Shown: positions 1 through 44,993 of the stretch, piece after piece
How positions within the stretch are numbered: the first letter of the stretch is position 1
Layout of the letters: every line of letters starts with the position of its first letter
Virus record (IMG/VR): IMGVR_UViG_2684622541_000015
DNA from: a virus
Taxonomy: Duplodnaviria > Heunggongvirae > Uroviricota > Caudoviricetes
Length of the DNA stretch: 45,369 nt
Strand: one strand, 5' to 3'
Made by a program: the position numbers and the translations under genes
Notes under the pieces: model-generated
What the model saw: the letters and a program-made list of their open reading frames with translations, nothing else
Database searches by the model: none
Told to the model about the DNA's origin: nothing

Positions 1-573
1 ATGTTTTGCGAAGAAAAAGTAGCTCAAATGGCTGCATACCTACTTCTTAAGCGAGGTGGGCGCATGGCATATCTGAAATTGATGAAGCTGCTCTATCTGT
101 CTAACCGCAAGTCGATTTTGAAGCATGGCAGGATGATCGGCGAAGATAGCCTTTACTCTATGAAATTTGGTCCAGTCATGTCGAATACGCTGAACTTGAT
201 TCGTGGTAAGGCTGAAGGTATTGGTGACTACTGGTACAACCTGATAGAGACGAACGGGCATGATGTGTTGTTGCGTTCAGATCCGAGGGAAATGGATGCA
301 GACGAGGTCTTTGATGAGTTGAGCCGTGCAGATATCCGGATTTTAGATGAAATCTATTCTCTGTATGGGCATATGAACCGATTTGATCTCGCAAACATGA
401 CGCATTTAGAAAGCGTTTGTCCAGAGTGGCACAATCCTGGCAATTCTCGTAAGCCTATAGACCTGAAAGAAATGCTGATCAGTGAGGGTAAAAGCGAGGA
501 TGAGGCTAATCGTATAATTGGCAAAATGGAAGAATCTCAGAAACTTAAGGAATTTTCTTTGCAATTATCATGA
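1..573 (+). CDS. Panacea-domain (DUF4065/GepA-like) protein, putative antitoxin; N-terminus may be cut by the window edge
   Basis: ORF starts at base 1. Motif KLMKLLYLSNRK...KFGPVMSN matches the hKLxKLLYxx...GPV signature I recall for Panacea/COG3600 proteins. Stop overlaps next ORF start (ATGA). Confidence 0.55.
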   Translation: MFCEEKVAQMAAYLLLKRGGRMAYLKLMKLLYLSNRKSILKHGRMIGEDSLYSMKFGPVMSNTLNLIRGKAEGIGDYWYNLIETNGHDVLLRSDPREMDADEVFDELSRADIRILDEIYSLYGHMNRFDLANMTHLESVCPEWHNPGNSRKPIDLKEMLISEGKSEDEANRIIGKMEESQKLKEFSLQLS

Positions 574-989
574 CGGATTATCAGCCATACAGGAAAGGAA
601 CTGTGCTTGCCCCAACTGGGCCATGCAATCATCTTCATGTGATTTGTAATGATCCTGTTTATTACCCCGTTAACGATTGTTATTGTGTTTTAGTTGTTAA
701 TATTTCTAGTATCAAGGATGGTGTCCCCCACGATCCGTCTTGCGTCTTGAATTCTGGTGATCATCGCTTTATCAAGCATCCAAGTTATGTTGTTTACGCT
801 GAAGCTATAATTTGGCGAGTGGATAACATGGTTAGAAAGCAGCGATCGGGTGAGATTTCCGTTCATGATGATATGCCAGAAGCTACATTCAATAGAATTC
901 TGGACGGTTTTGATATATCTGATGAAGTTACGCCAAAGAACCTTAAATTTAAAAATAAATATTGCGTATCATCTATTGATGATGAGTAA
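570..989 (+). CDS. hypothetical protein; candidate toxin partner of the upstream Panacea protein
   Basis: 139-aa ORF whose ATG overlaps the upstream stop by 4 bp (translational coupling). No motif recognised; Cys/His-rich N-terminal half. Confidence 0.45.
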   Translation: MTDYQPYRKGTVLAPTGPCNHLHVICNDPVYYPVNDCYCVLVVNISSIKDGVPHDPSCVLNSGDHRFIKHPSYVVYAEAIIWRVDNMVRKQRSGEISVHDDMPEATFNRILDGFDISDEVTPKNLKFKNKYCVSSIDDE

Positions 990-2538: not shown

Positions 2539-3363
2539 TCAGGCGGTGAAAGTACCAATAAAGGTTTCTACTTTGCTGTCTTTGAATTTCTCAACAAGCA
2601 GATCACGAAATTCGTTAGCCATTTCTTCCTGTACCGCTTCCAGCTGAATAATGCGCAGAACCAGTACAGGACGATCGCCAGTGATAATGCTGAGGCGTAA
2701 TTTAAACGGACGTTCTTTCAGACCTTCAAACGGAACGCATTTAAATTCAAATGCCACTGGCATAATGTCTTTGGTCTTCGCTTCGACAGACTCCATCAGG
2801 GAGCGTTTGCCGCTGAAGTCATTATCTTCAAAATCAGCGGTCTGGTTCGCTTCAATTGTGATTTTACGGATCGCCGCAGCCGCTTTGGTTGCCTGAATGG
2901 CGTCACCATTAGCATCAAAGCCCACAAGGTAGTCGGCCCAGTCTTCAATCCATTCTGCCAGTGACTTCTGGGAGTTACGCTCGCCATTAACAGACAACAG
3001 AGCAGAGAACGGAGCTGTCTTTTTCAGTTTGAGAGTGGCGGTGTTATCTGCGTGACCTGGTTCATCAATAGTACCCAGGTTAAGAACACTGACGGCACGC
3101 ATATTATCAGCATCGATAAAGCAGCGGGTGCCTTCATCTGCAAGATCTTTAGAATAACGAGTAAAGTCATCGATGCTGGCAGTGGAAAGCGCACCACGGA
3201 AACGGAAACGATTTAAATTTAATTTTTCCAGATCATGAATGCGGAAATTCTCAGGCAATGCCACAGCATCGGCACCAATCTTACTGATAATTTCATTAAC
3301 ACCCTGAGCAGAAATAAGGGCATGGATTTGATTAATTGCGGTTGCGTCTAAGTTCTGAGACAT
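2539..3363 (-). CDS. YfdQ-like (DUF2303) phage protein
   Basis: 274-aa ORF; length and sequence character match my recollection of the CPS-53 YfdQ family. Hairpin AAATGCCCC-N3-GGGGCATTT lies just downstream (2503..2526). Confidence 0.5.
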
Positions 3364-4477: not shown

Positions 4478-5152
4478 TTAGGCCTTTATTATGTATCTTC
4501 TTGGTTTTCCTGAGAAAATCACTGTACCAATTATAGAGCAATTACCGTTAATCTTAATGTAAGGCTCAGGCCAGTTTGGGTTTAATGCTTTGAGATAACG
4601 CTGTGTTCCATCTTCTATCAACCGCTTGAAGGTGGTTTCGCCTGTATCGTGCATCAATGCAATAACGTCGTCACCGTGGCAGGCAGGGACTTCAGGATCA
4701 ACAAAAATCATGTCTCCCGGGCGGTACTCATCAATCATTGAATCACCAATCACCCGCAAGATATAAGTCATTTCGCCACAGGGTACAGGGCAGGGATAAG
4801 TTTCTGCTGTGCTCAAATCAACCTCAGAATAGCCAACTTCTTTCCATGCTCCGGCCTGTACCCATGATATGACAGGGACTAACGTTATTTGTTTGTTAGT
4901 GATTGAAACGTCAGGTTTTTTTGTGATGTTCGTTGTCTGGTGTTCTTGATCAAGCCATCCGACAGGCAGGTCGAAACATTTTTCGATGTGCCGTGCCATG
5001 CTGTCACCGATATTTTTAGTTGCACCATCTCCCATAAACCTGCTGGTCTGGGTTGGCTCGCGATCAATCATGGTGGCAAAGGAAGAATTCCCGCCAACAC
5101 CATCTCTCAGTTTTCTGGCGTTAGACCGCCGGATGTCATGGACTGTTTTCAT
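4478..5152 (-). CDS. cI: CI-type phage repressor with C-terminal S24 (LexA-like) peptidase domain
   Basis: 224 aa; C-terminal half has the S24 fold signature (GDSM...PGD...; Ser/Lys dyad context). Divergent from a cro-like gene across an operator region. Confidence 0.8.
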   Translation of the reverse strand: MKTVHDIRRSNARKLRDGVGGNSSFATMIDREPTQTSRFMGDGATKNIGDSMARHIEKCFDLPVGWLDQEHQTTNITKKPDVSITNKQITLVPVISWVQAGAWKEVGYSEVDLSTAETYPCPVPCGEMTYILRVIGDSMIDEYRPGDMIFVDPEVPACHGDDVIALMHDTGETTFKRLIEDGTQRYLKALNPNWPEPYIKINGNCSIIGTVIFSGKPRRYIIKA

Positions 5153-5158
5153 AAAGAA

Positions 5159-5187
5159 ATTAAAACCTTTGTACCGATAAGGTACAA
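5159..5187 (-). promoter_or_regulatory. candidate pRM-like promoter, leaderless cI transcript
   Basis: Minus strand: -35 TTGTAC (fwd 5182..5187), 17-nt spacer, -10 TTTAAT (fwd 5159..5164), ending 6 nt before the cI ATG, so the transcript would begin at or next to the start codon. Confidence 0.4.
5169..5187. promoter_or_regulatory. operator: perfect 19-bp palindrome TTGTACC-GATAA-GGTACAA
   Basis: Perfect inverted repeat with 5-bp centre between divergent cI and cro; related half-sites (TGTA[CT]C / GGTACA) recur at 4407..4432 and 5222..5238. Confidence 0.6.
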
Positions 5188-5474: not shown

Positions 5475-6038
5475 ATGAGGCTAACCGTGGGTAAGCATCA
5501 CTGGAAAGTAGAAAAACAGCCTGAGTGGTACGTGAAAGCTGTCAGAAAAACTATCGCGGCGTTGCCGGGGGGTTACGCTGAAGCTGCTGAGTGGCTGGAT
5601 GTAACAGAGAACGCTTTATTCAACCGCCTTCGTGCAGATGGCGATCAGATTTTCCCGCTGGGATGGGCAATGATTTTACAGCGCGCGGCTGGCACTCACT
5701 ACATTGCGGATGCTGTCGCACAGTCTGCTGGTGGGGTGTTTGTATCGCTTCCTGAAATTGAGGAAGTAGAGAACGCCGATATAAACCAGCGCCTGCTGGA
5801 AGTCATCGAACAGATCGGGAGTTACTCAAAGCAGATTCGTTCGGCAATCGAAGATGGGGTAGTGGAGCCACACGAGCAGACAGCAATTAATGATGAGTTG
5901 TATCTGTCAATTTCGAAGCTCCAGGAGCATGCAGCACTGGTCTACAAAATCTTTTGCGCTCCAGAAAAGAGTGACGCCCGCGAGTGTGCAGCTCCGGGCG
6001 TCGTGGCGTTTTGTGTCTGTGGAGAAACTAACGCATGA
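5475..6038 (+). CDS. CII-like regulatory protein (phage 186 CII/CP76-like family, tentative)
   Basis: 187-aa ORF directly after cro; N-terminal region resembles what I recall of the phage regulatory CII (CP76) family. Not verified. Confidence 0.4.
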   Translation: MRLTVGKHHWKVEKQPEWYVKAVRKTIAALPGGYAEAAEWLDVTENALFNRLRADGDQIFPLGWAMILQRAAGTHYIADAVAQSAGGVFVSLPEIEEVENADINQRLLEVIEQIGSYSKQIRSAIEDGVVEPHEQTAINDELYLSISKLQEHAALVYKIFCAPEKSDARECAAPGVVAFCVCGETNA

Positions 6039-6871
6039 ACAGTTTAACGGCAAATAACCGTTTGTCGCAACAGCTGGTGGTCAGCGTCGCTGAACACCTG
6101 TTGTTACGGCATGAATGCAGATTACCAAATCACCTGGCTGTAAGTAACCACAGAGAACTTTACCTGACTGTGGGGGGCGAGTTGTGCAGGAACTTAACCG
6201 CTGGTTTCGTGACGGAAGAGGACTTTATGTTCATGTTATTCGTTGGGAGCCAGAAACACAGCGCGTTATCTATCTTCGCAAAGACTACCCGCATGAGTGC
6301 TTTAGTCCTTTGTGGAAATTCAGGCGTGATTTTGTTGAGTGTGAAGGACCACCAGCACATTGATTCTGCCATTCCGGGACGTTACACTGTTCAGGCACCT
6401 TATAAAGCGGGTGCCGGGATTGGCGTCCTGGAATTGATCAAGGCGATATATGACGCGCCAGCGTCTTTTTTATCGTCCGCATTTGCTCACATCAAAGTTA
6501 TGGTGGGCTGGGCGGGGGCATCGAAAGATGCGCCGGTTTCCTTGATCACCGGTTACGCCAACCCCGTTCAGTTCACCACCAGCGAAATTGGCGTTTCCGG
6601 TGGTGGAAGTATTTCACCGATCAAGGAGGCTGCCATCATGGCTACTGTCCCAGCCCTCACTCGTCTGAATGATGAAGACTTACATAAACTCAGTTATGTA
6701 ACAACTGCACTACGTGCTCTGCGCAAGGTAACTCTTTCGGATCCGCAGGCACATCAGGTTCTGGTAGAAACCCTTCTTAACTTGCAAGCTGAACGTATTC
6801 GTCTGGCGGATAAGGCTAATTTTCATATTCACCGTCTCCTGAATATCAGCGGAGGGCATCGTCATGCTTAA
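6035..6871 (+). CDS. hypothetical protein
   Basis: 278-aa ORF, start ATG overlaps the upstream stop (ATGA). No motif recognised. Confidence 0.4.
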   Translation: MNSLTANNRLSQQLVVSVAEHLLLRHECRLPNHLAVSNHRELYLTVGGELCRNLTAGFVTEEDFMFMLFVGSQKHSALSIFAKTTRMSALVLCGNSGVILLSVKDHQHIDSAIPGRYTVQAPYKAGAGIGVLELIKAIYDAPASFLSSAFAHIKVMVGWAGASKDAPVSLITGYANPVQFTTSEIGVSGGGSISPIKEAAIMATVPALTRLNDEDLHKLSYVTTALRALRKVTLSDPQAHQVLVETLLNLQAERIRLADKANFHIHRLLNISGGHRHA

Positions 6872-35392: not shown

Positions 35393-35803
35393 NNNNNNNN
35401 NNNNNNNNNNNNNNNNNNNNNNNNNNNNNNNNNNNNNNNNNNNNNNNNNNNNNNNNNNNNNNNNNNNNNNNNNNNNNNNNNNNNNNNNNNNNNNNNNNNN
35501 NNNNNNNNNNNNNNNNNNNNNNNNNNNNNNNNNNNNNNNNNNNNNNNNNNNNNNNNNNNNNNNNNNNNNNNNNNNNNNNNNNNNNNNNNNNNNNNNNNNN
35601 NNNNNNNNNNNNNNNNNNNNNNNNNNNNNNNNNNNNNNNNNNNNNNNNNNNNNNNNNNNNNNNNNNNNNNNNNNNNNNNNNNNNNNNNNNNNNNNNNNNN
35701 NNNNNNNNNNNNNNNNNNNNNNNNNNNNNNNNNNNNNNNNNNNNNNNNNNNNNNNNNNNNNNNNNNNNNNNNNNNNNNNNNNNNNNNNNNNNNNNNNNNN
35801 NNN
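35393..35803. other. assembly gap (411 N)
   Basis: Run of N; the track ORF spanning it is an artefact. Confidence 0.95.
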
Positions 35804-36140: not shown

Positions 36141-39100
36141 ATGGCAGTAAAGATTTCAGGTGTACTGAAAGACGGCACAGGAAAACCGGTACAGAACTGC
36201 ACAATCCAGCTGAAAGCAAAACGTAACAGCACCACGGTGGTGGTGAACACGCTGGCCTCAGAAAATCCGGATGAAGCCGGGCGTTACAGCATGGACGTTG
36301 AGTACGGTCAGTACAGCGTTATTCTGTTGGTGGAAGGATTCCCGCCGTCACATGCCGGGACCATCACCGTGTATGAAGATTCCCGACCCGGTACGCTGAA
36401 TGATTTTCTCGGTGCCATGACGGAGGATGATGCCCGTCCGGAGGCTCTGCGCCGTTTTGAGCTGATGGTGGAAGAGGTGGCGCGTAACGCGTCCGCNNNN
36501 NNNNNNNNNNNNNNNNNNNNNNNNNNNNNNNNNNNNNNNNNNNNNNNNNNNNNNNNNNNNNNNGTGGCACAGAACACGGCAGCCGCGAAGAAGTCAGCCA
36601 GTGATGCCAGAACATCTGCCCGTGAGGCGGCAACCCATGCGACTGATGCTGCAGGCTCAGCACGTGCAGCCAGCACGTCAGCCGGACAGGCCGCGACGTC
36701 GGCTCAGGAGGCTTTTTCCAGCGCAGGAACGGCATCAACAAAGGCCACTGAAGCATCAAAAAGTGCTGCCGCTGCAGAGTCCTCAAAAAGCGCGGCGGCC
36801 ACCAGTGCCGGTGCGGCGAAAACGTCAGAAACGAATGCGGCAGCGTCACAACAATCAGCTGCCACTTCTGCATCCACCGCGACCACGAAAGCGTCAGAAG
36901 CAGCCACCTCAGCCAGAGATGCGTCGGCTTCAAAAGAGGCGGCAAAATTATCAGAAACGAGCGCAGCTTCGAGCGCCAGTAATGCCGCTTCCTCGGCAAC
37001 GGCGGCAGGAAATTCCGCGAAGGCGGCAAAGACGTCTGAGACAAACGCTAAGTCCTCTGAAACGGCAGCAGCACAGAGTGCCTCCGCAGCAGCAGGCTCA
37101 AAAACAGCGGCTGCGTCGTCTGCCAGTGCAGCGTCAACAAGTGCCGGGCAGGCCTCAGCCAGTGCTAGCGCCGCCGGAAAATCGGCAGAAAGCGCCGCAT
37201 CGTCCGCTTCAACAGCCACAACGAAGGCTGGCGAAGCCACTGAACAGGCCAGTGCAGCAGCGAGGTCTGCTTCCGCAGCGAAGACATCGGAGACGAACGC
37301 GAAAGCGTCGGAGACCAGCGCAGAATCCTCAAAAACGGCTGCCGCATCGTCCGCCAGTTCGGCGGCGTCATCGGCATCATCGGCGTCTGCTTCAAAAGAT
37401 GAGGCGACCAGACAAGCGTCCGCAGCGAAGGGCAGCGCCACGACAGCATCCACGAAGGCGACAGAGGCTGCTGGCAGTGCGACGGCGGCAGCACAGAGCA
37501 AAAGTACGGCGGAATCCGCGGCAACGCGCGCCGAGACAGCGGCAAAACGTGCAGAGGATATTGCATCCGCCGTGGCGCTTGAGGATGCGAGCACGACGAA
37601 AAAGGGGATAGTACAGCTCAGTAGTGCGACTAATAGCACGTCTGAAACGCTGGCGGCAACGCCAAAGGCAGTAAAAGCAGCCAATGACAATGCTGAGAAA
37701 CGTCTGCAGAAAGACCAGAACGGCGCTGATATACCCGATAAGGGACGCTTCCTGAACAACATTAACGCGGTCAGTAAAACAGACTTTGCTGATAAGCGTG
37801 GTATGCGTTATGTGCGGGTTAACGCTCCTGCAGGTGCAACATCTGGAAAATATTACCCTGTTGTTGTTATGCGTTCTGCTGGCTCAGTAAGCGAACTGGC
37901 ATCAAGGGTCATTATCACCACGGCAACGCGAATCGCAGGCGATCCGATGAATAACTGCGAGTTTAACGGATTTGTTATGCCTGGTGGCTGGACTGACAGG
38001 GGGCGTTATGCTTATGGAATGTTCTGGCAATATCAAAACAATGAACGAGCCATCCACTCAATAATGATGAGTAATAAGGGCGATGATTTGCGCTCTGTGT
38101 TCTATGTTGATGGCGCTGCTTTCCCTGTTTTTGCGTTTCTCGAAGATGGCCTGTCAATATCCGCACCTGGTGCTGATCTCGTTGTTAATGATACGACCTA
38201 TAAGTTTGGGGCAACAAATCCGGCGACTGAATGTATCGCGGCGGACGTTATCCTTGATTTTAAGAGTGGGCGTGGTTTTTATGAGTCTCATTCGTTAATC
38301 GTTAACGATAACTTGTCGTGCAAAAAACTTTTTGCCACAGACGAAATTGTAGCGCGTGGTGGTAATCAGATTCGAATGATAGGTGGGGAGTATGGTGCAT
38401 TATGGCGTAATGATGGCGCTAAAACTTACCTGCTGCTTACCAATCAAGGTGATGTTTATGGTGGCTGGAATACATTAAGACCGTTTGTTATTGATAACGC
38501 AACCGGCGAACTGGTTATTGGAACCAAACTGTCTGCAAGTCTGAACGGTAACGCATTGACAGCAACAAAGCTGCAAACGCCAAGACTGGTTTCTGGTGTT
38601 GAGTTTGATGGTTCCAAAGATATTACTTTAACCGCCGCGCATGTGGCTGCTTTTGCCAGAAGGGCAACGGATACATATGCCGATGCGGATGGTGGCGTTC
38701 CATGGAATGCCGAATCAGGCGCTTACAATGTCACCCGCTCTGGCAACAGCTATATTCTGGTTAACTTCTATACCGGAGTCGGAAGTTGCCGGACCTTGCA
38801 GATGAAGGCGCATTACAGAAATGGTGGTCTGTTCTACCGTTCTTCAAGAGACGGTTATGGTTTTGAGGAAGACTGGGCAGAAGTTTATACCTCGAAAAAT
38901 CTTCCACCAGAAAGCTACCCAGTCGGTGCACCAATCCCGTGGCCATCAGATACCGTTCCGTCTGGTTATGCCCTGATGCAGGGACAGACTTTTGACAAAT
39001 CTGCTTACCCGAAACTTGCAGCCGTTTATCCGTCAGGTGTGATCCCTGATATGCGTGGCTGGACGATTAAGGGCAAACCTGCCAGTGGTCGGGCCGTATT

Positions 39101-39605
39101 GTCTCAGGAACAGGACGGCATTAAATCGCATACCCACAGCGCCAGCGCATCCAGTACGGATTTGGGGACGAAAACCACATCGTCGTTTGATTACGGCACT
39201 AAATCCACGAATAACACTGGTGCGCATACCCATAGTTTAAGTGGCAGCACGAATGCAGCTGGTAATCACAGCCATAGAGATGGCCGTCGATTTAACCCCA
39301 GTGTTTTTAAAGATACTTATCAATATGGTTATACAAGCTCAGGTCAAAATACCTGGGGTGTACAAGGCTCAGTAGGTATGTCTACGGGGTGGTTAGCGAA
39401 TACCAGTACAGATGGTAATCATAGCCACTCACTGTCCGGCACAGCAGCATCTGCAGGTGCACACGCGCATACTGTCGGTATTGGTGCTCATACGCACTCC
39501 GTTGCGATTGGTTCACATGGACATACCATCACCGTTAACGCTGCGGGTAACGCGGAAAACACCGTCAAAAACATCGCATTTAACTATATTGTGAGGCTTG
39601 CATAA
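36141..39605 (+). CDS. stf: side tail fibre protein (Stf-like), interrupted by a 67-N gap
   Basis: N-terminus [26 protein letters not shown]… closely matches my recollection of lambda Stf. Long Ala/Ser/Thr-rich repeat region; His-rich C-terminal tip (HSHS…HAHT…HTHS…HGHT). Start ATG 36141. Confidence 0.8.
36497..36563. other. assembly gap (67 N) inside stf
   Basis: Run of N. Confidence 0.95.
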
Positions 39606-40189
39606 TGGCATTCAGAATGAGTGAACAACCACGGACCATAAAAATTTATAATCTGCTGACCGGAACTAATGAATTTATTGGTGAAGGTGACGCATATATT
39701 CCGCCTCATACAGGTCTGCCAGCAAACAGTACCTATATTGCACCGCCAGATATTCCGGCTGGCTTTGTGGCTGTTTTCAACAGTGATGAGGCATCGTGGC
39801 ATCTCGTTGAAGACCATCGGGGTAAAACGGTTTATGACGTAGCGTCAGGGGACGCGTTATTTATTTCTGAACTCGGTCCGTTACCGGAAAATGTTACCTG
39901 GTTATCCCCGGAAGGGGAGTTTCAGAAGTGGAACGGCACAGCCTGGGTGAAGGATACGGAAGCAGAAAAACTGTTCCGGATCCGGGAGGCGGAAGAAACA
40001 AAAAACAGCCTGATGCAGGTAGCCAGTGAGCATATTGCGCCGCTTCAGGATGCTGCAGATCTGGAAATCGCAACGGAGGAAGAAACCTCGTTGCTGGAAG
40101 CCTGGAAGAAGTATCGGGTGTTGCTGAACCGTGTTGATACATCAACTGCACCTGATATTGAGTGGCCTGCGGTCCCTGTTATGGAGTAA
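39605..40189 (+). CDS. tfa: tail fibre assembly protein (Tfa-like)
   Basis: 194 aa directly after stf with overlapping start/stop; typical Tfa size and position. Confidence 0.7.
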
Positions 40190-40260
40190 TCGTTTTGTGA
40201 TATGCCGCAGCAACTTGTCATGGCAGGATACTGCGGCTGATTTGTGAATTTAAATAGTGT

Positions 40261-40324
40261 NNNNNNNNNNNNNNNNNNNNNNNNNNNNNNNNNNNNNNNN
40301 NNNNNNNNNNNNNNNNNNNNNNNN
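40261..40324. other. assembly gap (64 N)
   Basis: Run of N, 14 nt downstream of the RT stop codon. Confidence 0.95.
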
Positions 40325-40338
40325 AATGGATTACATAT

Positions 40339-41709
40339 CTATGATATCCCTGAAATGTCCTCTTCAAGCTCTTTTACTGATTTCGCAATTTTAAATTTAA
40401 ATTTTCTCTCTATTTCACTATTGCTAAGTTTTTTTTCATTCTCTTTCCCTATCCACATAGAAACAATTTCTCGTTTCTGAGATATATGTAGATTGTCAAA
40501 GTTAGGTATGTATTTAAAAGTCTCCGCTCTACCCCTGCGGAGTTCATAGAAAGTTTTAATCAAAGACTTTGGTTTTATTTCTGATGAAAGGCCGAATCGG
40601 CGGATAAGATTATTGATCGTATGATTAACAGCTCGAAGTTGAGCTGTTGACGTTATTTGTGAGAAGTACGATACCCATCCCAATCGTTTACCTTCAAACA
40701 CACATCCCGTAATTCTAAGATTTAGTTTCCACTGACAATATGCAACAGCTCGTTCTTTATCGCGCTTATTTTTAGCTTGTAGTAGAGCGTGTCTATATGC
40801 AGTAAAAATTTTTGCTAAGGATGACTCAAATCTAAGAATGCTCTCATGTTTTATCAATAATTCTCGATTTTTTATGTGGTAGCCCAAAAAGTTGAAACTT
40901 TCATCCAAGCTGCCTACTTTGGATTTTGAGTTCTCTTCATTTAATGGATGTGGGTTTAAATTTAATGATTGAAGCTTATCAATGATATGAGAAGCTATTT
41001 TTGTTGCTTGATATTTTGGTGTTAAAATAAGAATGTCATCAACGTATCGCATGTACCATATGTCATGCATTTTATTGATTTCATCATCGAAATTAGATAG
41101 TGATATTTCAGCTAAAATGTTTGATATCGCTAATCCCTGAGGTACTCCTCTGGTATTATTAGGGATACCTTTGCTTCCTGTGGTTCCACTTACAGTAGGC
41201 ACGATTAATGATGATGTTATTAACTGTCTAATTTCTTTTTTTCTAATTTTATTTTTTATTGCATTAATTATCAATTTATGTTCAATTGAAGGATAGAAAC
41301 TTTTAAGATCTATTTTTGCATATTCAGCATATAGACTGTTGTTTAATGCTTCTTTCAATGAGTCAATTACTGTATGTGGTAGTTTTAATCTGGACTTAGG
41401 ATATATTTCCGTAAGGCATTCACAGAGAGCTCTAAGAGTAATTCTGTCCCTAGCAGTTGGTATGGAAATCTGTCTGGGTGTAGAGTTAGCGCCTTTAGAT
41501 ATTAATTTTTCTTTATATGCTGTAAATTTGTAATTGCCAGAATTAACCTTTTCAAAAATGAAAGTGATCTCATTTTTTATTGTCAAATCAAGTTTTGATG
41601 GGCGAATCCGATCTATGCCAATCGCTCCTGATTCTTTGATTTTTTCAGAGTATACTTTTAGAAGATTTTTTTTCGAGAATGACTTTTTAAAAATTCTGCT
41701 TGCAGTCAT
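40339..41709 (-). CDS. reverse transcriptase (retron/Abi/UG-like; family unassigned) with ~150-aa C-terminal extension
   Basis: RT motifs read directly: KIDLKSFYPSI (motif A-like), RGVPQGLAISNILAEISL (motif B-like), YMRYVDDILIL (YxDD), FNFLGYHI (motif E-like). AT-rich. First ATG at 41709; track start 41715 is TTG. 5' end overlaps the upstream membrane-protein gene by ~23 nt. Confidence 0.75.
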   Translation of the reverse strand: MTASRIFKKSFSKKNLLKVYSEKIKESGAIGIDRIRPSKLDLTIKNEITFIFEKVNSGNYKFTAYKEKLISKGANSTPRQISIPTARDRITLRALCECLTEIYPKSRLKLPHTVIDSLKEALNNSLYAEYAKIDLKSFYPSIEHKLIINAIKNKIRKKEIRQLITSSLIVPTVSGTTGSKGIPNNTRGVPQGLAISNILAEISLSNFDDEINKMHDIWYMRYVDDILILTPKYQATKIASHIIDKLQSLNLNPHPLNEENSKSKVGSLDESFNFLGYHIKNRELLIKHESILRFESSLAKIFTAYRHALLQAKNKRDKERAVAYCQWKLNLRITGCVFEGKRLGWVSYFSQITSTAQLRAVNHTINNLIRRFGLSSEIKPKSLIKTFYELRRGRAETFKYIPNFDNLHISQKREIVSMWIGKENEKKLSNSEIERKFKFKIAKSVKELEEDISGIS

Positions 41710-42238
41710 AGTCAATCCAAAGATATATTAATGGGAGTATATAAAGTGCGGCAGTAATAAATATTCGAAGTAATATCCATAAAATAACAATTATTTTTTC
41801 TTTTTGTGTGGGGATCCTCGTCTTAAGTCCAACTTGAGTTACCCTTGAAATTTTATCATCTATGTCACGGTGATTCTCAACCTCATTGAGCAAATTAAAA
41901 TATTTTTCTTTCTGTTCAAGAGATAACTGTTGACTGGTGGTAATGTCAAAATAGAGTCGCTGTAGTGCAATATAATTCCTTCTCATGGCTATTGCTCGAC
42001 CACGAAAATCTAGGTTAGATACGATCAGAGAAATACCCAGTAGAGCCACTGAAAGTATCGCCGCAACGACATCTGTATTATCTCCTAGAACCTTTGGAAA
42101 TCGCAACGTTACAATTGAAAGTACCGCACTCAATATAGCATACCAAACGAGGATAAATTGAGAGTGTTTTTCAAGCCATTCTAGTCGATGGTGCGCTTGG
42201 ATACGTGCTTTATATGTAAACCAAATATTGTCATGCAT
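41687..42238 (-). CDS. small multi-pass membrane protein, candidate effector partner of the RT
   Basis: 183 aa with three hydrophobic segments (FILVWYAILSAVLSIVTL; VVAAILSVALLGISLIVS; IIVILWILLRIFITAALYILPLIYLWI) and a ~60-aa central soluble region. AT-rich; RBS AAAAAGGA before the ATG. Confidence 0.55.
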   Translation of the reverse strand: MHDNIWFTYKARIQAHHRLEWLEKHSQFILVWYAILSAVLSIVTLRFPKVLGDNTDVVAAILSVALLGISLIVSNLDFRGRAIAMRRNYIALQRLYFDITTSQQLSLEQKEKYFNLLNEVENHRDIDDKISRVTQVGLKTRIPTQKEKIIVILWILLRIFITAALYILPLIYLWIDYDCKQNF

Positions 42239-42460
42239 AAAAGATCCTTTTTAAAAGCGGAAGGGGCAGGATATATTGGAACCGTTGAACATCCTGCCCG
42301 GCAGGATCAGTGAGCATAAGCTCAACAGTAAAATATTACTGTTCATTATCAGAGCCGCCCTTGCATGCGCAAGAGGAAAAACCTGCCCCATCCCTTTGAA
42401 TTATTACAATTTAATGATCTTAAAGTCAATACAAGTGAATGGTGTCCAGAGATGATGAAC
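42239..42460 (-). ncRNA. hairpin-dense leader / candidate structured non-coding RNA upstream of the membrane-protein/RT operon
   Basis: Within ~130 nt: GGGGCAGGAT (42263..42272), complement ATCCTGCCC (42291..42299), GGCAGGAT (42300..42307), complement CCTGCCCC (42382..42389); plus hairpins AACAGTAA-AATA-TTACTGTT (42324..42343), TGAGC-ATAA-GCTCA (42311..42324), CTTGC-ATGC-GCAAG (42360..42373). No ORF of 60 aa or more. Confidence 0.3.
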
Positions 42461-42709
42461 TTAATGAACAAACCACTCGTCAGCAGACTCCCAGGTATCT
42501 TTCAGAGTCTCCTGAACAAAAGTTTTAGCTGAATCTTTATCAGCGGTGCGCGTAACAGAAAGGCCATCGTTGCTGGTGGCTTTTACGATCACTTCTACAT
42601 CGTCATAACGTTTACTGATGCGTCGGGTTAATTCTTCCTTTAACGCATCCACAGCACCGGTTGGCATTTTAGTCATTTTTTCTTTGGCTATGCAGATTTC
42701 AATACGCAT
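42461..42709 (-). CDS. dinI: DinI-family protein
   Basis: 82 aa; MRIEICIAK…[10 protein letters not shown]…[15 protein letters not shown] closely matches my recollection of E. coli DinI (MRIEVTIAK…GAIDAL…ETWESADDWFV). Tandem SOS boxes upstream. Confidence 0.7.
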
Positions 42710-42721
42710 AAAAGTCCCCTA

Positions 42722-42769
42722 CACTGTATTTGTATACAGTATTATTTTTAACTGTATGGATAAACAGTG
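42722..42769. promoter_or_regulatory. two tandem LexA (SOS) boxes upstream of the dinI-like gene
   Basis: CACTGTATTTGTATACAGTA (42722..42741) and AACTGTATGGATAAACAGTG (42750..42769), each CTGT-N8-ACAG with AT-rich centre; they overlap the 3' end of the integrase ORF. Confidence 0.6.
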
Positions 42770-43867
42770 TCAAGAGGTCTTATTTCTGCTCCTTTGGAGT
42801 TCTTCAAAACGATTATGTAAAGATTTCGGATACAGTTCGGTATATACCTGCCATAGCACGTTTAATGAACGATGCCCTGTAACCTGAGCGACTTCCTCAA
42901 TACTAAAACCAGCCTCAAATAAGCGACTTGCCCCTTCTCTACGCAAATCATGGTATCTCAGATCTTTAATACCTAATTTGCTTCTTACCCTCTGAAATCC
43001 TGCGGTAACAGAAGTGCTGTTATATGGAAAAATGAATTCTGATTTTTTGGGTTGTCGCTGGACGATATCCCAGGCTTCCCCAAGCAAGGCAACTTTCATA
43101 TGGTTGCCTTCCTTTTTACGTGGATCTTTCCTGTCTCTTACTAGTATAGATTTTTGTTCCTGGTCGAGATCTTCCCATCGTAACCGGCATACTTCTCCGA
43201 TTCGCATACAGGACCACACAGAAAATTTGAGGATATCAACGAACGGAATTTTTGAGCATTTATGAGTAGATCGTTGTTGAAGGCCTTCAATGAGCATGTT
43301 CAGTTCATCAGATGCTGGTCTACGATTACGACGGTTTGATTTACCAATCAAACCGAGTTTAAGTAGATATGGACGAGCGCTTTTCGCCGGGTTTGATGTG
43401 TAATTGATTCCGTATACAGGTTTTGCCGCATCCAGAACACTGCCAAGATAACTAACATCGTGGCTGACTGTTGCTGGGCCTGCACCAGCGTTGTTTCTTA
43501 GCCTGCAATGTTCAATTACGTCATTTTCTGTCAGTTCAGATAGTTTGATCGCGGAGATGTCACTATCCATAAGCAGTTCCAGCACATATCTTTTAGTACG
43601 GCCTGCTTTACCTCCGGCATTTGGGTCATTTAAATATTTGTGTAGTAAGTCACGGACTGTAAGTCCGTCAACAGCATTTGATGATGGAATGCCATATAGA
43701 TCTAATTCCATCACTTTCTGTGCGCCCCATGTTTTGGCATGAGCATGTTTAGGGAATGTTTTGCTTTCCCTGTAAGTGATAACACCTTTTTCTTTGATAA
43801 TCACATTACAGCGATAGCGTGGTGTGCCATCGGATTTTAGTCGTTTCTCTATGTTATAGTACGCCAT
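42770..43867 (-). CDS. int: tyrosine recombinase / phage integrase, divergent from dusA
   Basis: 365 aa; C-terminal catalytic region (…HDLRREGASRLFEAG…VTGHRSLNVLWQVYTELYP) consistent with the tyrosine recombinase R-H-R-Y family; start lies 88 bp from the dusA start on the opposite strand. Confidence 0.85.
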   Translation of the reverse strand: MAYYNIEKRLKSDGTPRYRCNVIIKEKGVITYRESKTFPKHAHAKTWGAQKVMELDLYGIPSSNAVDGLTVRDLLHKYLNDPNAGGKAGRTKRYVLELLMDSDISAIKLSELTENDVIEHCRLRNNAGAGPATVSHDVSYLGSVLDAAKPVYGINYTSNPAKSARPYLLKLGLIGKSNRRNRRPASDELNMLIEGLQQRSTHKCSKIPFVDILKFSVWSCMRIGEVCRLRWEDLDQEQKSILVRDRKDPRKKEGNHMKVALLGEAWDIVQRQPKKSEFIFPYNSTSVTAGFQRVRSKLGIKDLRYHDLRREGASRLFEAGFSIEEVAQVTGHRSLNVLWQVYTELYPKSLHNRFEELQRSRNKTS

Positions 43868-43886
43868 TACACGACCTCGTTATTTC

Positions 43887-43922
43887 GGGTTCCCATAAAG
43901 CGTGGGAACCTGTGCGGGAACC
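43887..43922. repeat. GGGAACC-type inverted and direct repeats in the int-dusA intergenic region
   Basis: GGGTTCCC (43887..43894) facing GGGAACC (43904..43910), with a second direct GGGAACC (43916..43922). Confidence 0.35.
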
Positions 43923-43955
43923 TAACGCGAGAAAAATAGCCTGAAATGTTCAAAA

Positions 43956-44993
43956 ATGCACGATAATCCTGAAACACAGAAAACTAATCAAACCAGCGTG
44001 ATGCCTGAAAAAACTGGCGCTTACTGGAGTTCTCGGTTTAGCATTGCTCCTATGCTCGACTGGACGGACAGACATTGCCGCTATTTCTTGCGTCTGCTTT
44101 CCCGCAATACGTTGCTGTATACCGAAATGGTGACCACAGGGGCGATTATTCACGGTAAAGGTGATTACCTGGCGTACAGTGAAGAAGAACATCCGGTAGC
44201 GTTGCAACTCGGCGGTAGCGATCCGGCGGCGCTGGCACAGTGTGCGAAGCTGGCAGAAGCGCGTGGATATGATGAGATCAACCTGAATGTCGGCTGCCCG
44301 TCTGACCGGGTGCAGAACGGCATGTTTGGTGCGTGTCTGATGGGTAATGCGCAGCTGGTTGCCGACTGCGTGAAAGCGATGCGCGATGTGGTGTCGATTC
44401 CAGTGACGGTGAAAACGCGTATTGGCATCGATGACCAGGACAGCTATGAATTTCTCTGCGATTTCATCAACACCGTTTCCGGCAAAGGCGAGTGTGAGAT
44501 GTTTATCATCCACGCACGTAAAGCCTGGCTTTCGGGGTTAAGCCCGAAAGAAAACCGTGAAATCCCGCCACTCGATTATCCGCGTGTGTATCAACTGAAG
44601 CGTGACTTTCCGCATCTGACAATGTCGATTAACGGTGGTATCAAGTCGCTGGAAGAGGCCAAAGCACACCTGCAACATATGGATGGCGTGATGGTCGGGC
44701 GCGAGGCGTATCAGAATCCGGGTATTCTGGCGGCGGTAGACCGGGAGATCTTTGGTTCCTCGGATACCGATGCCGATCCGGTGGCGGTAGTGCGCGCCAT
44801 GTATCCGTACATTGAGCGTGAACTCAGCCAGGGGACGTATCTCGGCCATATTACCCGGCATATGTTGGGCTTGTTCCAGGGTATTCCTGGCGCGCGGCAG
44901 TGGCGGCGTTATTTAAGTGAAAATGCCCATAAAGCGGGTGCAGACATTAATGTGCTGGAACACGCGCTCAAACTGGTGGCGGATAAGCGTTAA
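43956..44993 (+). CDS. dusA: tRNA-dihydrouridine synthase A
   Basis: 345 aa; matches my recollection of E. coli DusA over nearly the full length (…[14 protein letters not shown]…[14 protein letters not shown]…[10 protein letters not shown]…). Confidence 0.9.

Follow-up and report, generated by a model that had tools for sequence, protein, structure and literature searches.

A probable DRT10 antiphage cassette with a variant predicted template in a lambdoid prophage of Escherichia coli

Introduction

UG17 reverse transcriptases (RTs) fall in class 2 of the UG/Abi RT lineage (PMC9226505) and are the RTs of DRT10, a system made of three parts, namely an ncRNA, a SLATT protein, and the RT itself (PMC12632851; 10.64898/2026.04.29.721553; 10.64898/2026.06.29.735271). 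Both the tandem-repeat cDNA and a phage defense dependent on the RT, SLATT, and ncRNA are known from experiments on homologues of the locus described here. For example, replacing YVDD with YVAA in Eco3DRT10 abolishes defense (PMC12632851), and the priming residue of this system is S456, which appears as S458 in an NCBI record that begins 2 aa early. How the cDNA acts on SLATT is contested, one group reporting that loss of cDNA releases SLATT (Tang 2025; PMC12632851) and another that its accumulation does so (Sanchez-Nieto 2026; 10.64898/2026.04.29.721553).

Here we analyzed an RT gene in a 45,369-nt stretch of DNA, referred to as the window (IMG/VR record IMGVR_UViG_2684622541_000015). In the original prediction, the RT was given a mixed signature, with a retron-like YxDD context and ITG triplet but no NAxxH motif and a long C-terminal tail, and was taken as a divergent retron-related or UG/Abi-class RT rather than a canonical retron.

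Results

The RT gene lies on the minus strand at 40339-41709 and encodes 456 aa counted from its ATG; starting at a TTG further upstream (41715) would give 458 aa. The ORF matches Pfam RVT_1 (E 7e-21) and is evidently a real reverse transcriptase. Translation places YMRYVDDILIL at aa 219-229 (41023-41055), with the catalytic YVDD box at aa 222-225 (minus strand, 41035-41046), LRITGCVF at aa 331-338 (40696-40719), and LNNSLYAEYAKIDLKSFYPS at aa 122-141 (41287-41346), whereas NAxxH was not found anywhere in the 456-aa protein, so that the sequence features originally noted are all borne out. YVDD and the N-L-R-(I)-T-G-C block are invariant or nearly so in 34 homologues sharing 58-83% identity with the window RT, the YVDD box being invariant in all of them, and because of this conservation the motifs are not chance strings.

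The PADLOC RT_UG17 profile matches the protein over its entire length (profile positions 1-429 of 429) with 527 bits and E 1e-158. The runner-up among PADLOC families, Drt3a, reaches 130 bits (E about 1e-38 to 3e-38), leaving UG17 about 400 bits ahead of every other family. Table S1 of PMC12632851 includes near-identical E. coli RTs as UG17 loci 457 and 495, and the window RT is 98% identical to the E. coli CE10 allele, with which it shares its length and a terminal S456. The placement in UG17 was made from profile scores and near-identity to Table S1 entries. The exact protein is RefSeq WP_039268535.1, present on 732 contigs, and an exact-sequence look-up with the 458-aa form returned ANK04665.1, not OKX54664.

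These scores agree with the earlier view that the RT is not a canonical retron, since it fails the retron profile cut-off and matches UG17; they also separate the two halves of the proposed class, the UG/Abi half being upheld by the UG17 profile and the retron-related half falling with a retron_St85_RT score of 58.4 bits against a cut-off of 235. On the same profile the Ec86 RT, whose sequence was validated by this very match, scores 287.6 bits. A divergent retron would use an msr/msd RNA to make branched msDNA, with a 2'-OH as primer, and would hold an effector in check. The likeness of RYVDD to retron RYADD is loose, the St85 match is weak (E 7e-16), and the label "retron-type reverse transcriptase" that some database records give to homologues, although pointing the same way, has to be set against the absence of NAxxH and a BLASTP alignment with Ec86 that extends over motifs A-C only, at 22% identity. 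Furthermore, the Ec86 VTG lies 45 residues past YADD, in motif 7, where the equivalent position in the window protein reads FLGY (aa 274-277). The ITG triplet (aa 333-335), on the other hand, is 108 residues past D225, in a predicted thumb helix of an AF2 model and 9 residues ahead of an LGW motif; it is therefore not the retron VTG, and the case for ITG and the YxDD box as retron-like features does not stand. Searches of 39500-44000 at E up to 1 found no msr or other retron RNA in Rfam, which covers only some retron RNAs, and the adjacent RNA appears instead to be that of DRT10. With the UG17 lead over all other families, the profile scores already refute a retron, to which we assign a probability close to nil.

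A second candidate is the RT of a group II intron or a group II-like maturase, whether still mobile or surviving as a domesticated remnant. In a PDB copy that contained no DRT10 structure, GsI-IIC and G2L4 were the best matches by sequence and by fold, and solved retron RTs came 25th or lower among the structural matches, after group II-like RTs and DRT9. The match to TIGR04416, although it covers aa 16-374 (E 4.5e-42) and is joined by a weak GIIM match, amounts to 144 bits against a cut-off of 300, far below the UG17 score. Rfam gave no group II intron RNA domains, whether the gathering threshold was applied or hits with E up to 1 were admitted, and the gene, rather than lying inside an intron, comes after a 137-nt ncRNA and shares its start with the end of a SLATT gene. 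The likeness reflects the shared ancestry of bacterial RTs, and there is next to no chance that the gene is a group II RT.

The AF2 model of the RT (pLDDT 86) shows a thumb followed by a helical C-terminal domain. The structure prediction that had been suggested for the long tail returned a long C-terminal helix at aa 430-452 followed by an SGIS tail. The C-terminal extension is the known DRT10 C-terminal domain bearing the priming serine, here a predicted one: the codon for S456, the C-terminal residue, occupies 40342-40344 on the minus strand, and its priming role is proposed from conservation and from the parallel with Eco3DRT10. S456 is invariant in the 34 homologues and in five E. coli alleles. 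The RT therefore combines what is expected of a DRT10 enzyme, namely UG17 membership, an intact YVDD box, and a C-terminal helix with S456.

The cassette lies on the minus strand at the integrase end of a lambdoid E. coli prophage, beside dusA, and has three co-linear parts, the ncRNA, the SLATT_5 gene, and the overlapping UG17 RT gene. The SLATT gene (41687-42238, minus strand) encodes a 183-aa predicted effector with three hydrophobic segments at about aa 27-46, 55-74, and 148-172. It is recognized by Pfam SLATT_5 (E 1e-28), by PADLOC RTasSLATT (E 1.5e-56), and by NCBIfam SLATT_5 (136 bits, the cut-off being 60). The start of the RT gene overlaps its stop by 23 nt, and a SLATT homologue stands directly upstream of the RT in 27 of 27 loci with at least 50% RT identity. 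A SLATT-5 family gene upstream of, and overlapping, the RT is the arrangement of DRT10 subtype A. With the expected partner genes in place, the RT sits squarely in the characterized UG17 clade, and the framing of a divergent protein of mixed signature falls away.

A tyrosine recombinase adjoins the cassette, as it does in two of the three E. coli DRT10 systems tested (PMC12632851). This integrase and a neighboring DinI gene were considered as further parts of the system and rejected, since in other genera homologues of neither stand beside the cassette and since DRT10 defense is unaffected when the recombinase is deleted (PMC12632851). The DinI gene is frameshifted in some strains, a sign of local decay.

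The ncRNA is predicted upstream of the SLATT gene at 42257-42393 on the minus strand (137 nt; SL1-SL5 with Loop A and Loop B), as identified by numbering, fold, and covariation, its boundaries being fixed by giving the template the same position, nt 107-115, that it has in published Eco3DRT10. In this numbering U43, G44, G111, C116, A117, and U119 agree with published Eco3DRT10 residues. A promoter-like site precedes it at 42400-42429 on the minus strand, with a -35 TTGACT, an 18-nt spacer, and an extended -10 TG-AATAAT, giving 10 of 12 consensus matches plus the TG in a scan that scores match to consensus alone. The end of the -10 hexamer is 7 nt ahead of the inferred ncRNA 5' end, and the element is invariant across six E. 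coli alleles.

The minimum-free-energy fold gives five stem-loops, with a GC-rich SL1 and an AT-rich SL3, as described for the DRT10 ncRNA (10.64898/2026.06.29.735271), and SL5 at nt 87-103. The fold also pairs part of Loop A with Loop B; these pairs were dropped from the model because both loops are single-stranded in published structures. A covariance model built from the ncRNA found full-length matches upstream of SLATT-RT in 27 loci. In their alignment, 96% of cells are paired and double changes occur in 28 of 37 pairs, compared with about 50% paired in slid controls, and RNAalifold on an independent MAFFT alignment gave the same five helices. The E. coli model did not reach loci with 31-34% RT identity, mostly alphaproteobacterial, in agreement with the published remark that DRT10 models work within subtypes only. 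Together, these data point to a structured ncRNA upstream of SLATT, as in DRT10. Rfam 15 has no family for it, so in standard annotation the 220-bp intergenic region looks "empty" and the RT is called just "reverse transcriptase domain-containing protein."

Loop B, which follows SL5, reads CAA(C)-GGUUC-CAA(U) at nt 107-119. The predicted template A-B, RNA 5'-CAACGGUUC-3', lies just past SL5 at nt 107-115 (42279-42287, minus strand), the position known from Eco3, and is followed at nt 116-119 (42275-42278, minus strand) by the predicted realignment segment A', RNA CAAU, which is identical to the Eco3 A'. C116, A117, and U119 coincide with positions of published Eco3 mutants. Most homologous ncRNAs carry here a (U)CAA...(U)CAA direct repeat whose period is 9-11 nt, and the locus shows the A-B-A' template organization of DRT10.

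This template also bears on whether the locus could be another class 2 UG system, DRT3- or DRT9-like, making homopolymer or dinucleotide repeats instead of a 9-nt repeat. The idea is prompted by Drt3a, the second-best antiviral family in both PADLOC and NCBIfam, by DRT9 being among the best fold matches, and by the reported likeness between DRT10 and DRT9 ncRNAs (PMC12632851). Loop B, however, contains an Eco3-type A-B-A' and neither a poly-U nor an ACACAC template, and the single RT ORF of the cassette leaves the locus without the second RT of DRT3 (UG8/Drt3b). The Drt3a score of 130 bits compares with 527 for UG17 in PADLOC, and NCBIfam NF041747 gives 112.6 bits against a cut-off of 200. A DRT3- or DRT9-like system is thus very improbable here.

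The CE10 allele has exactly the template of Eco3, CAAUGAUUC. The window template CAACGGUUC differs from it at two bases in 9 nt, with C110 in place of U and G112 in place of A; two of the four ncRNA differences between the window and the CE10 allele thus lie in the template. These changes lead us to predict a cDNA repeat of 5'-GAACCGTTG-3' instead of the Eco3 repeat GAATCATTG, and with C110 and G112 realignment would leave the fourth A/A' base paired as dG:rU. Through A112G, moreover, the 4-nt sequence GUUC occurs twice (nt 104-107 and 112-115), a second direct repeat that could in principle give an 8-nt register (CGTTGAAC). This GUUC...GUUC repeat (period 8) was the longest in Loop B by a first repeat search and was set aside for CAA...CAA (period 9), a register kept because it is experimental in Eco3, starts at the initiation site C116, and is conserved across homologues.

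Of 188 complete E. coli genomes with the locus, 154 contain the 45-nt template region of the window unchanged, and the other 34 differ in it. In the available part of the published Eco3DRT10 text, CAACGGUUC is not reported as a tested template. We regard it as rather unlikely, though conceivable, that the two-base difference is functional and not neutral, in which case the majority allele might make a different repeat or mixed registers. The repeat sequence might also be selected, for example for SLATT recognition or for escape from phage counter-defense.

The two departures from the tested template, together with the local decay seen in DinI, could instead be taken to mean that a DRT10 locus is present but inactive, being silenced in the prophage or having a template unfit for repeat addition. 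All three parts are intact, however, and none of the residues named for catalysis, priming, or alignment is missing; the template region is that of the majority allele; and the published U110A mutant of Eco3DRT10 tolerates a mismatched fourth A base, B being freely variable (PMC12632851). We therefore give an inactive locus only a small probability. Nothing in the sequence speaks against the DRT10 assignment.

Discussion

Our results strongly suggest, with a probability of roughly 94%, that an intact DRT10 antiphage system (UG17, subtype A, Eco3-like), with this RT as its catalytic subunit, is carried as a prophage cargo cassette. The gene, its partners, and the mechanism have already been described in 2025-2026 (preprints), and the exact protein is a common RefSeq entry. 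What the present analysis provides is a natural DRT10 locus annotated in full, with coordinates for the promoter-like site, ncRNA, template, alignment segment, and priming codon, and a commonest E. coli allele whose template is unlike the one studied in the laboratory.

By extension from published work on the near-identical Eco3DRT10, one ncRNA would be bound by two RT monomers, and the hydroxyl of the C-terminal S456 would prime synthesis beginning opposite C116. The RT would then copy the short Loop B template as far as a boundary set by SL5, after which the nascent DNA may slip back to the A' segment (CAAU) for the cycle to repeat. The expected product of this telomerase-like repeat addition is single-stranded DNA made of tandem repeats, kilobases in length and joined covalently to the RT. 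Such repeat DNA is thought to control the pore-like SLATT effector, which would halt infection.

Among known systems, Eco3DRT10 (RT OKX54664; Tang et al. 2025, PMC12632851; Ramirez et al. 2026, 10.64898/2026.06.29.735271) is the closest in organization, sharing the ncRNA-SLATT-RT order with the SLATT/RT overlap, an RT of 456 aa (458 with a mis-called start) with YVDD and a C-terminal S456, a 137-nt ncRNA with five stem-loops, the named residues and A' = CAAU, and an adjacent tyrosine recombinase, whereas two template bases differ. The likeness to OKX54664 is judged by length, by numbering, by the named residues, and by way of the CE10 allele. UG17-A of Escherichia sp. E3659 (Sanchez-Nieto et al. 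2026, 10.64898/2026.04.29.721553) has the same layout of ncRNA, SLATT-5, and overlapping RT, also in a Pseudomonadota host, and makes tandem-repeat cDNA, but with a 143-nt ncRNA of six stem-loops and 7-nt repeats. The SbcB and SSB-like trigger biology is described for the E3659 system rather than for the Eco3-like lineage.

Retron RTs such as Ec86 are likewise bacterial defense RTs that use an adjacent ncRNA, and their Y(A/V)DD is preceded by R. By comparison, the window RT would be set apart from them by lacking NAxxH, the motif 7 VTG, an msr/msd, and 2'-5' branch priming. Within class 2 of the UG RTs, DRT9 (UG28) and DRT2 (UG2) share with DRT10 a compact RT that lacks an extra known domain and a structured ncRNA giving a short template for repetitive synthesis, DRT9 being protein-primed as well. 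DRT9 differs, however, in making poly(dA) from a poly-U template, in priming from tyrosine, and in forming hexamers, whereas DRT2 primes from an RNA 3' end and builds a concatemeric gene; the profile scores of both families for the window RT are far below that of UG17. A broader parallel is with telomerase (TERT and telomerase RNA), argued in PMC12632851 from the A-B-A' template, the 5' boundary set by a stem, and repeat-addition processivity. By the same analogy, DRT10 would be distinguished from telomerase by a protein primer rather than a chromosome end, by an RT less than half the size of TERT in a 2:1 RT:RNA complex, and by its antiviral role.

Family placement of the reverse transcriptase

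The 456-residue ORF at 40339-41709 (-), read from an ATG (458 residues from a TTG at 41715), encodes a genuine reverse transcriptase (RT; Pfam RVT_1, E 7e-21) that covers the PADLOC RT_UG17 profile over its full length (E 1e-158, 527 bits), Drt3a being the next-best PADLOC family at just 130 bits. Within the UG/Abi RTs, UG17 has been assigned to class 2, and a strong association with SLATT proteins was noted (Mestre et al. 2022, PMC9226505). Other families were rejected on NCBIfam scores, namely group II intron maturase (144 bits against a cut-off of 300), Drt3a (113 against 200), Drt2 (77 against 390), and retron St85 (58 against 235). Translation of 40339-41709 bears out all the motif strings quoted in the original prediction, i.e. 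YMRYVDDILIL (aa 219-229), LRITGCVF (aa 331-338), and LNNSLYAEYAKIDLKSFYPS (aa 122-141), as well as the absence of NAxxH from the whole protein. The reading of them as a mixed retron-like signature is refuted by the RT falling squarely within UG17/DRT10 with both expected partners, a SLATT gene and an ncRNA, an outcome that the original prediction had itself set as its refutation.

The ITG triplet, which had been taken as retron-like, belongs to an N-L-R-I-T-G-C block that is invariant or nearly so across 34 homologues and lies, in an AF2 model (mean pLDDT 86), where the second thumb helix ends, just ahead of a short hairpin and the LGW motif. In the Ec86 retron RT (the sequence used was validated on the retron St85 profile, which it matches end to end at 288 bits), VTG occurs in motif 7, 45 residues past YADD. 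The likeness between ITG and VTG is coincidental, because the window RT reads FLGY (aa 274-277) at the VTG-equivalent position and BLASTP aligns Ec86 with it across motifs A-C only (22% identity). The seemingly extra 100-150 C-terminal residues are modeled as the thumb and a helical C-terminal domain closed by a long helix at aa 430-452 with an SGIS tail, and this modeled domain fits the published description of the priming-residue domain of Eco3DRT10, the studied E. coli example. In Foldseek searches of a PDB copy that, like the one used for sequence searches, contained no DRT10 structure, group II-like RTs (G2L4 and GsI-IIC) and DRT9 ranked first, with retron RTs appearing from rank 25 on.

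The SLATT and ncRNA partners

The DRT10 system was named by Tang et al. (2025, PMC12632851), who reported phage defense by three E. coli versions and its dependence on SLATT, on the active site of the RT, and on an ncRNA of ~137 nt encoded upstream of SLATT. In the window, a SLATT_5 gene (41687-42238) lies directly upstream of the RT gene and overlaps its start by 23 nt; its product has three hydrophobic segments and is called RT-associated SLATT by PADLOC (E 1.5e-56). The 222-bp gap between SLATT and a DinI-like gene, which carries no RefSeq annotation, folds far better than shuffled sequence (z = -3.8) and includes a promoter-like site, TTGACT-18-TGnAATAAT (42429-42400). The DRT10 template is a short A-B-A' pattern within an ncRNA loop (PMC12632851), and its published position, nt 107-115, sets the ncRNA at 42257-42393, whose 5' end, 42393, lies 7 nt past the -10 hexamer and whose 3' end is 42257. 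Under this numbering, all residues named in the DRT10 papers (U43, G44, G111, C116, A117, and U119) are found. The fold comprises five stem-loops as described for Eco3, including a GC-rich basal stem (SL1), an AT-rich SL3, and SL5 immediately ahead of the template loop.

This structure was used for a covariance model, which matched 27 of 42 homologous loci over its full length. These loci are from Xenorhabdus, Photorhabdus, Buttiauxella, Pseudomonas, Stutzerimonas, Stenotrophomonas, Bordetella, and three metagenome-assembled genomes, and in each the match lies immediately upstream of a SLATT-RT pair. In the resulting alignment, the share of paired cells is 96%, and compensatory double changes occur in 28 of 37 pairs. 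None of the shuffles equaled these values, and pairing dropped to ~50% when the structure was slid by 1-3 columns. An independent MAFFT alignment, analyzed with RNAalifold, gave the same five helices, with double changes in 19 pairs. Rfam 15 is without a DRT10 ncRNA family, and 42257-42393 matched none of its models, whether the gathering threshold was applied or E values up to 1 were allowed. A weak opposite-strand match of the covariance model (42259-42395 (+), 25 bits, E 0.004) is taken to reflect self-complementary stem-loops, not a second RNA.

Prophage setting

The window is a lambdoid prophage with an S24 repressor, CII, Ash, replication and structural genes, and genes for a J-like tail tip, a tail fiber, and tail-fiber assembly (the last at 39605-40189), and it ends in a tyrosine integrase adjoining dusA and pspG. 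The DinI-ncRNA-SLATT-RT cassette lies between the tail-fiber assembly gene and the integrase, and also occurs in prophages of other strains beside prfC and yecD, giving three chromosomal sites including dusA. The DinI-like gene (42461-42709) precedes ncRNA-SLATT-RT in every E. coli case; two of five strains inspected carry a frameshift in it. A role for DinI and the integrase as parts of the system is ruled out, because neither has a homologue adjoining the cassette in other genera and recombinase deletion left defense unaffected (PMC12632851); they are neighbors of DRT10, not components.

Just past the RT stop is a run of 64 N (40261-40324), where NZ_CP015085, otherwise 100% identical, has 27 nt, aaatcctttatatataaagcaataaac (positions 5147-5173 of its locus), so the run either does not preserve length or hides a different sequence. 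Further N runs occur at 35393-35803 (411 nt), where the J-like tail tip ORF is joined artificially to downstream sequence that may be the C terminus of a Lom/Ail-like outer-membrane protein, and at 36497-36563 (67 nt), which breaks the alanine- and serine-rich tail fiber gene. Within the tail-fiber assembly gene is a full-length Rfam IS009 match (39948-40146 (+), 227 bits against a gathering score of 117). Adjacent matches to the Hfq-binding sRNA isrK (64 bits) and to C4 antisense RNA (82 bits) at 6395-6583 (+), inside the Ash-domain ORF (6035-6871), resemble an immunity RNA module of the P1/P7 type in the early region of the prophage. The left edge (1-989 (+)) may carry a toxin-antitoxin pair, made up of an ORF encoding a SocA/Panacea antitoxin domain (1-573, E 2e-18) and, after it, an overlapping 139-residue ORF with no Pfam match.

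Predicted cDNA product and comparison with Eco3DRT10

The product of the DRT10 RT is single-stranded DNA of tandem repeats, kilobases in length, with a C-terminal serine (S456 in Eco3DRT10) as the primer (PMC12632851). Cryo-EM revealed two RTs per pseudo-symmetric ncRNA, initiation opposite C116, and a C-terminal helix filling the product track (Ramirez et al. 2026, 10.64898/2026.06.29.735271). Three UG17 subtypes (A to C) were defined by Sanchez-Nieto et al. (2026, 10.64898/2026.04.29.721553), who also implicated SbcB and an SSB-like trigger from the phage. By the published mechanism, synthesis would start opposite C116, run to C107, and realign on C116-U119, and the repeat unit for the window template should be 5'-GAACCGTTG-3'. 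Once a round is complete, the GTTG 3' end of the DNA would pair with CAAU through three Watson-Crick pairs and one dG:rU, and a fourth-position mismatch is tolerated in the U110A mutant (PMC12632851). At the same place, most homologues carry (U)CAA...(U)CAA, repeating every 9-11 nt. With A112G, GUUC stands at both nt 104-107 and nt 112-115 (42279-42290), giving a second perfect direct repeat of 4 nt; this one has a period of 8 and overlaps the CAA...CAA register of period 9. A Xenorhabdus locus shows the same arrangement. The GUUC register could be relevant solely if the RT were to read beyond its normal 5' boundary, a possibility that is speculative. The repeat DNA would control SLATT in a manner debated in the literature.

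Among complete E. coli genomes (5,426), 188-197 carry the locus, each time on the chromosome. Among six aligned alleles, that of strain CE10 has exactly the published Eco3 template, CAATGATTC-CAAT, whereas the window and four others have CAACGGTTC-CAAT. The window and CE10 ncRNAs show four differences, two of them inside the 9-nt template, a natural polymorphism of the DRT10 template (window 42275-42287, CE10 locus 3174-3186), and the RTs are 98% identical. A 45-nt template-spanning query was exact in 154 genomes and 95-99% identical in 34, so the window template is the common one. The Eco3 RT record, OKX54664, carries two extra N-terminal residues, record S458 being S456 of the paper (PMC12632851), and the window ORF has the same start ambiguity (458 residues from TTG, 456 from ATG) and likewise ends in serine. 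UG17 loci 457 and 495 of the published DRT10 table are near-identical E. coli RT and SLATT pairs flagged as ncRNA-associated. From these concordances in length, numbering, CE10 allele, and table, identity of the window system with Eco3 is inferred. The window copy is a natural allele of the best-studied example of an already known system, DRT10, to which it adds as sole new detail a two-base template variant and the predicted GAACCGTTG repeat.
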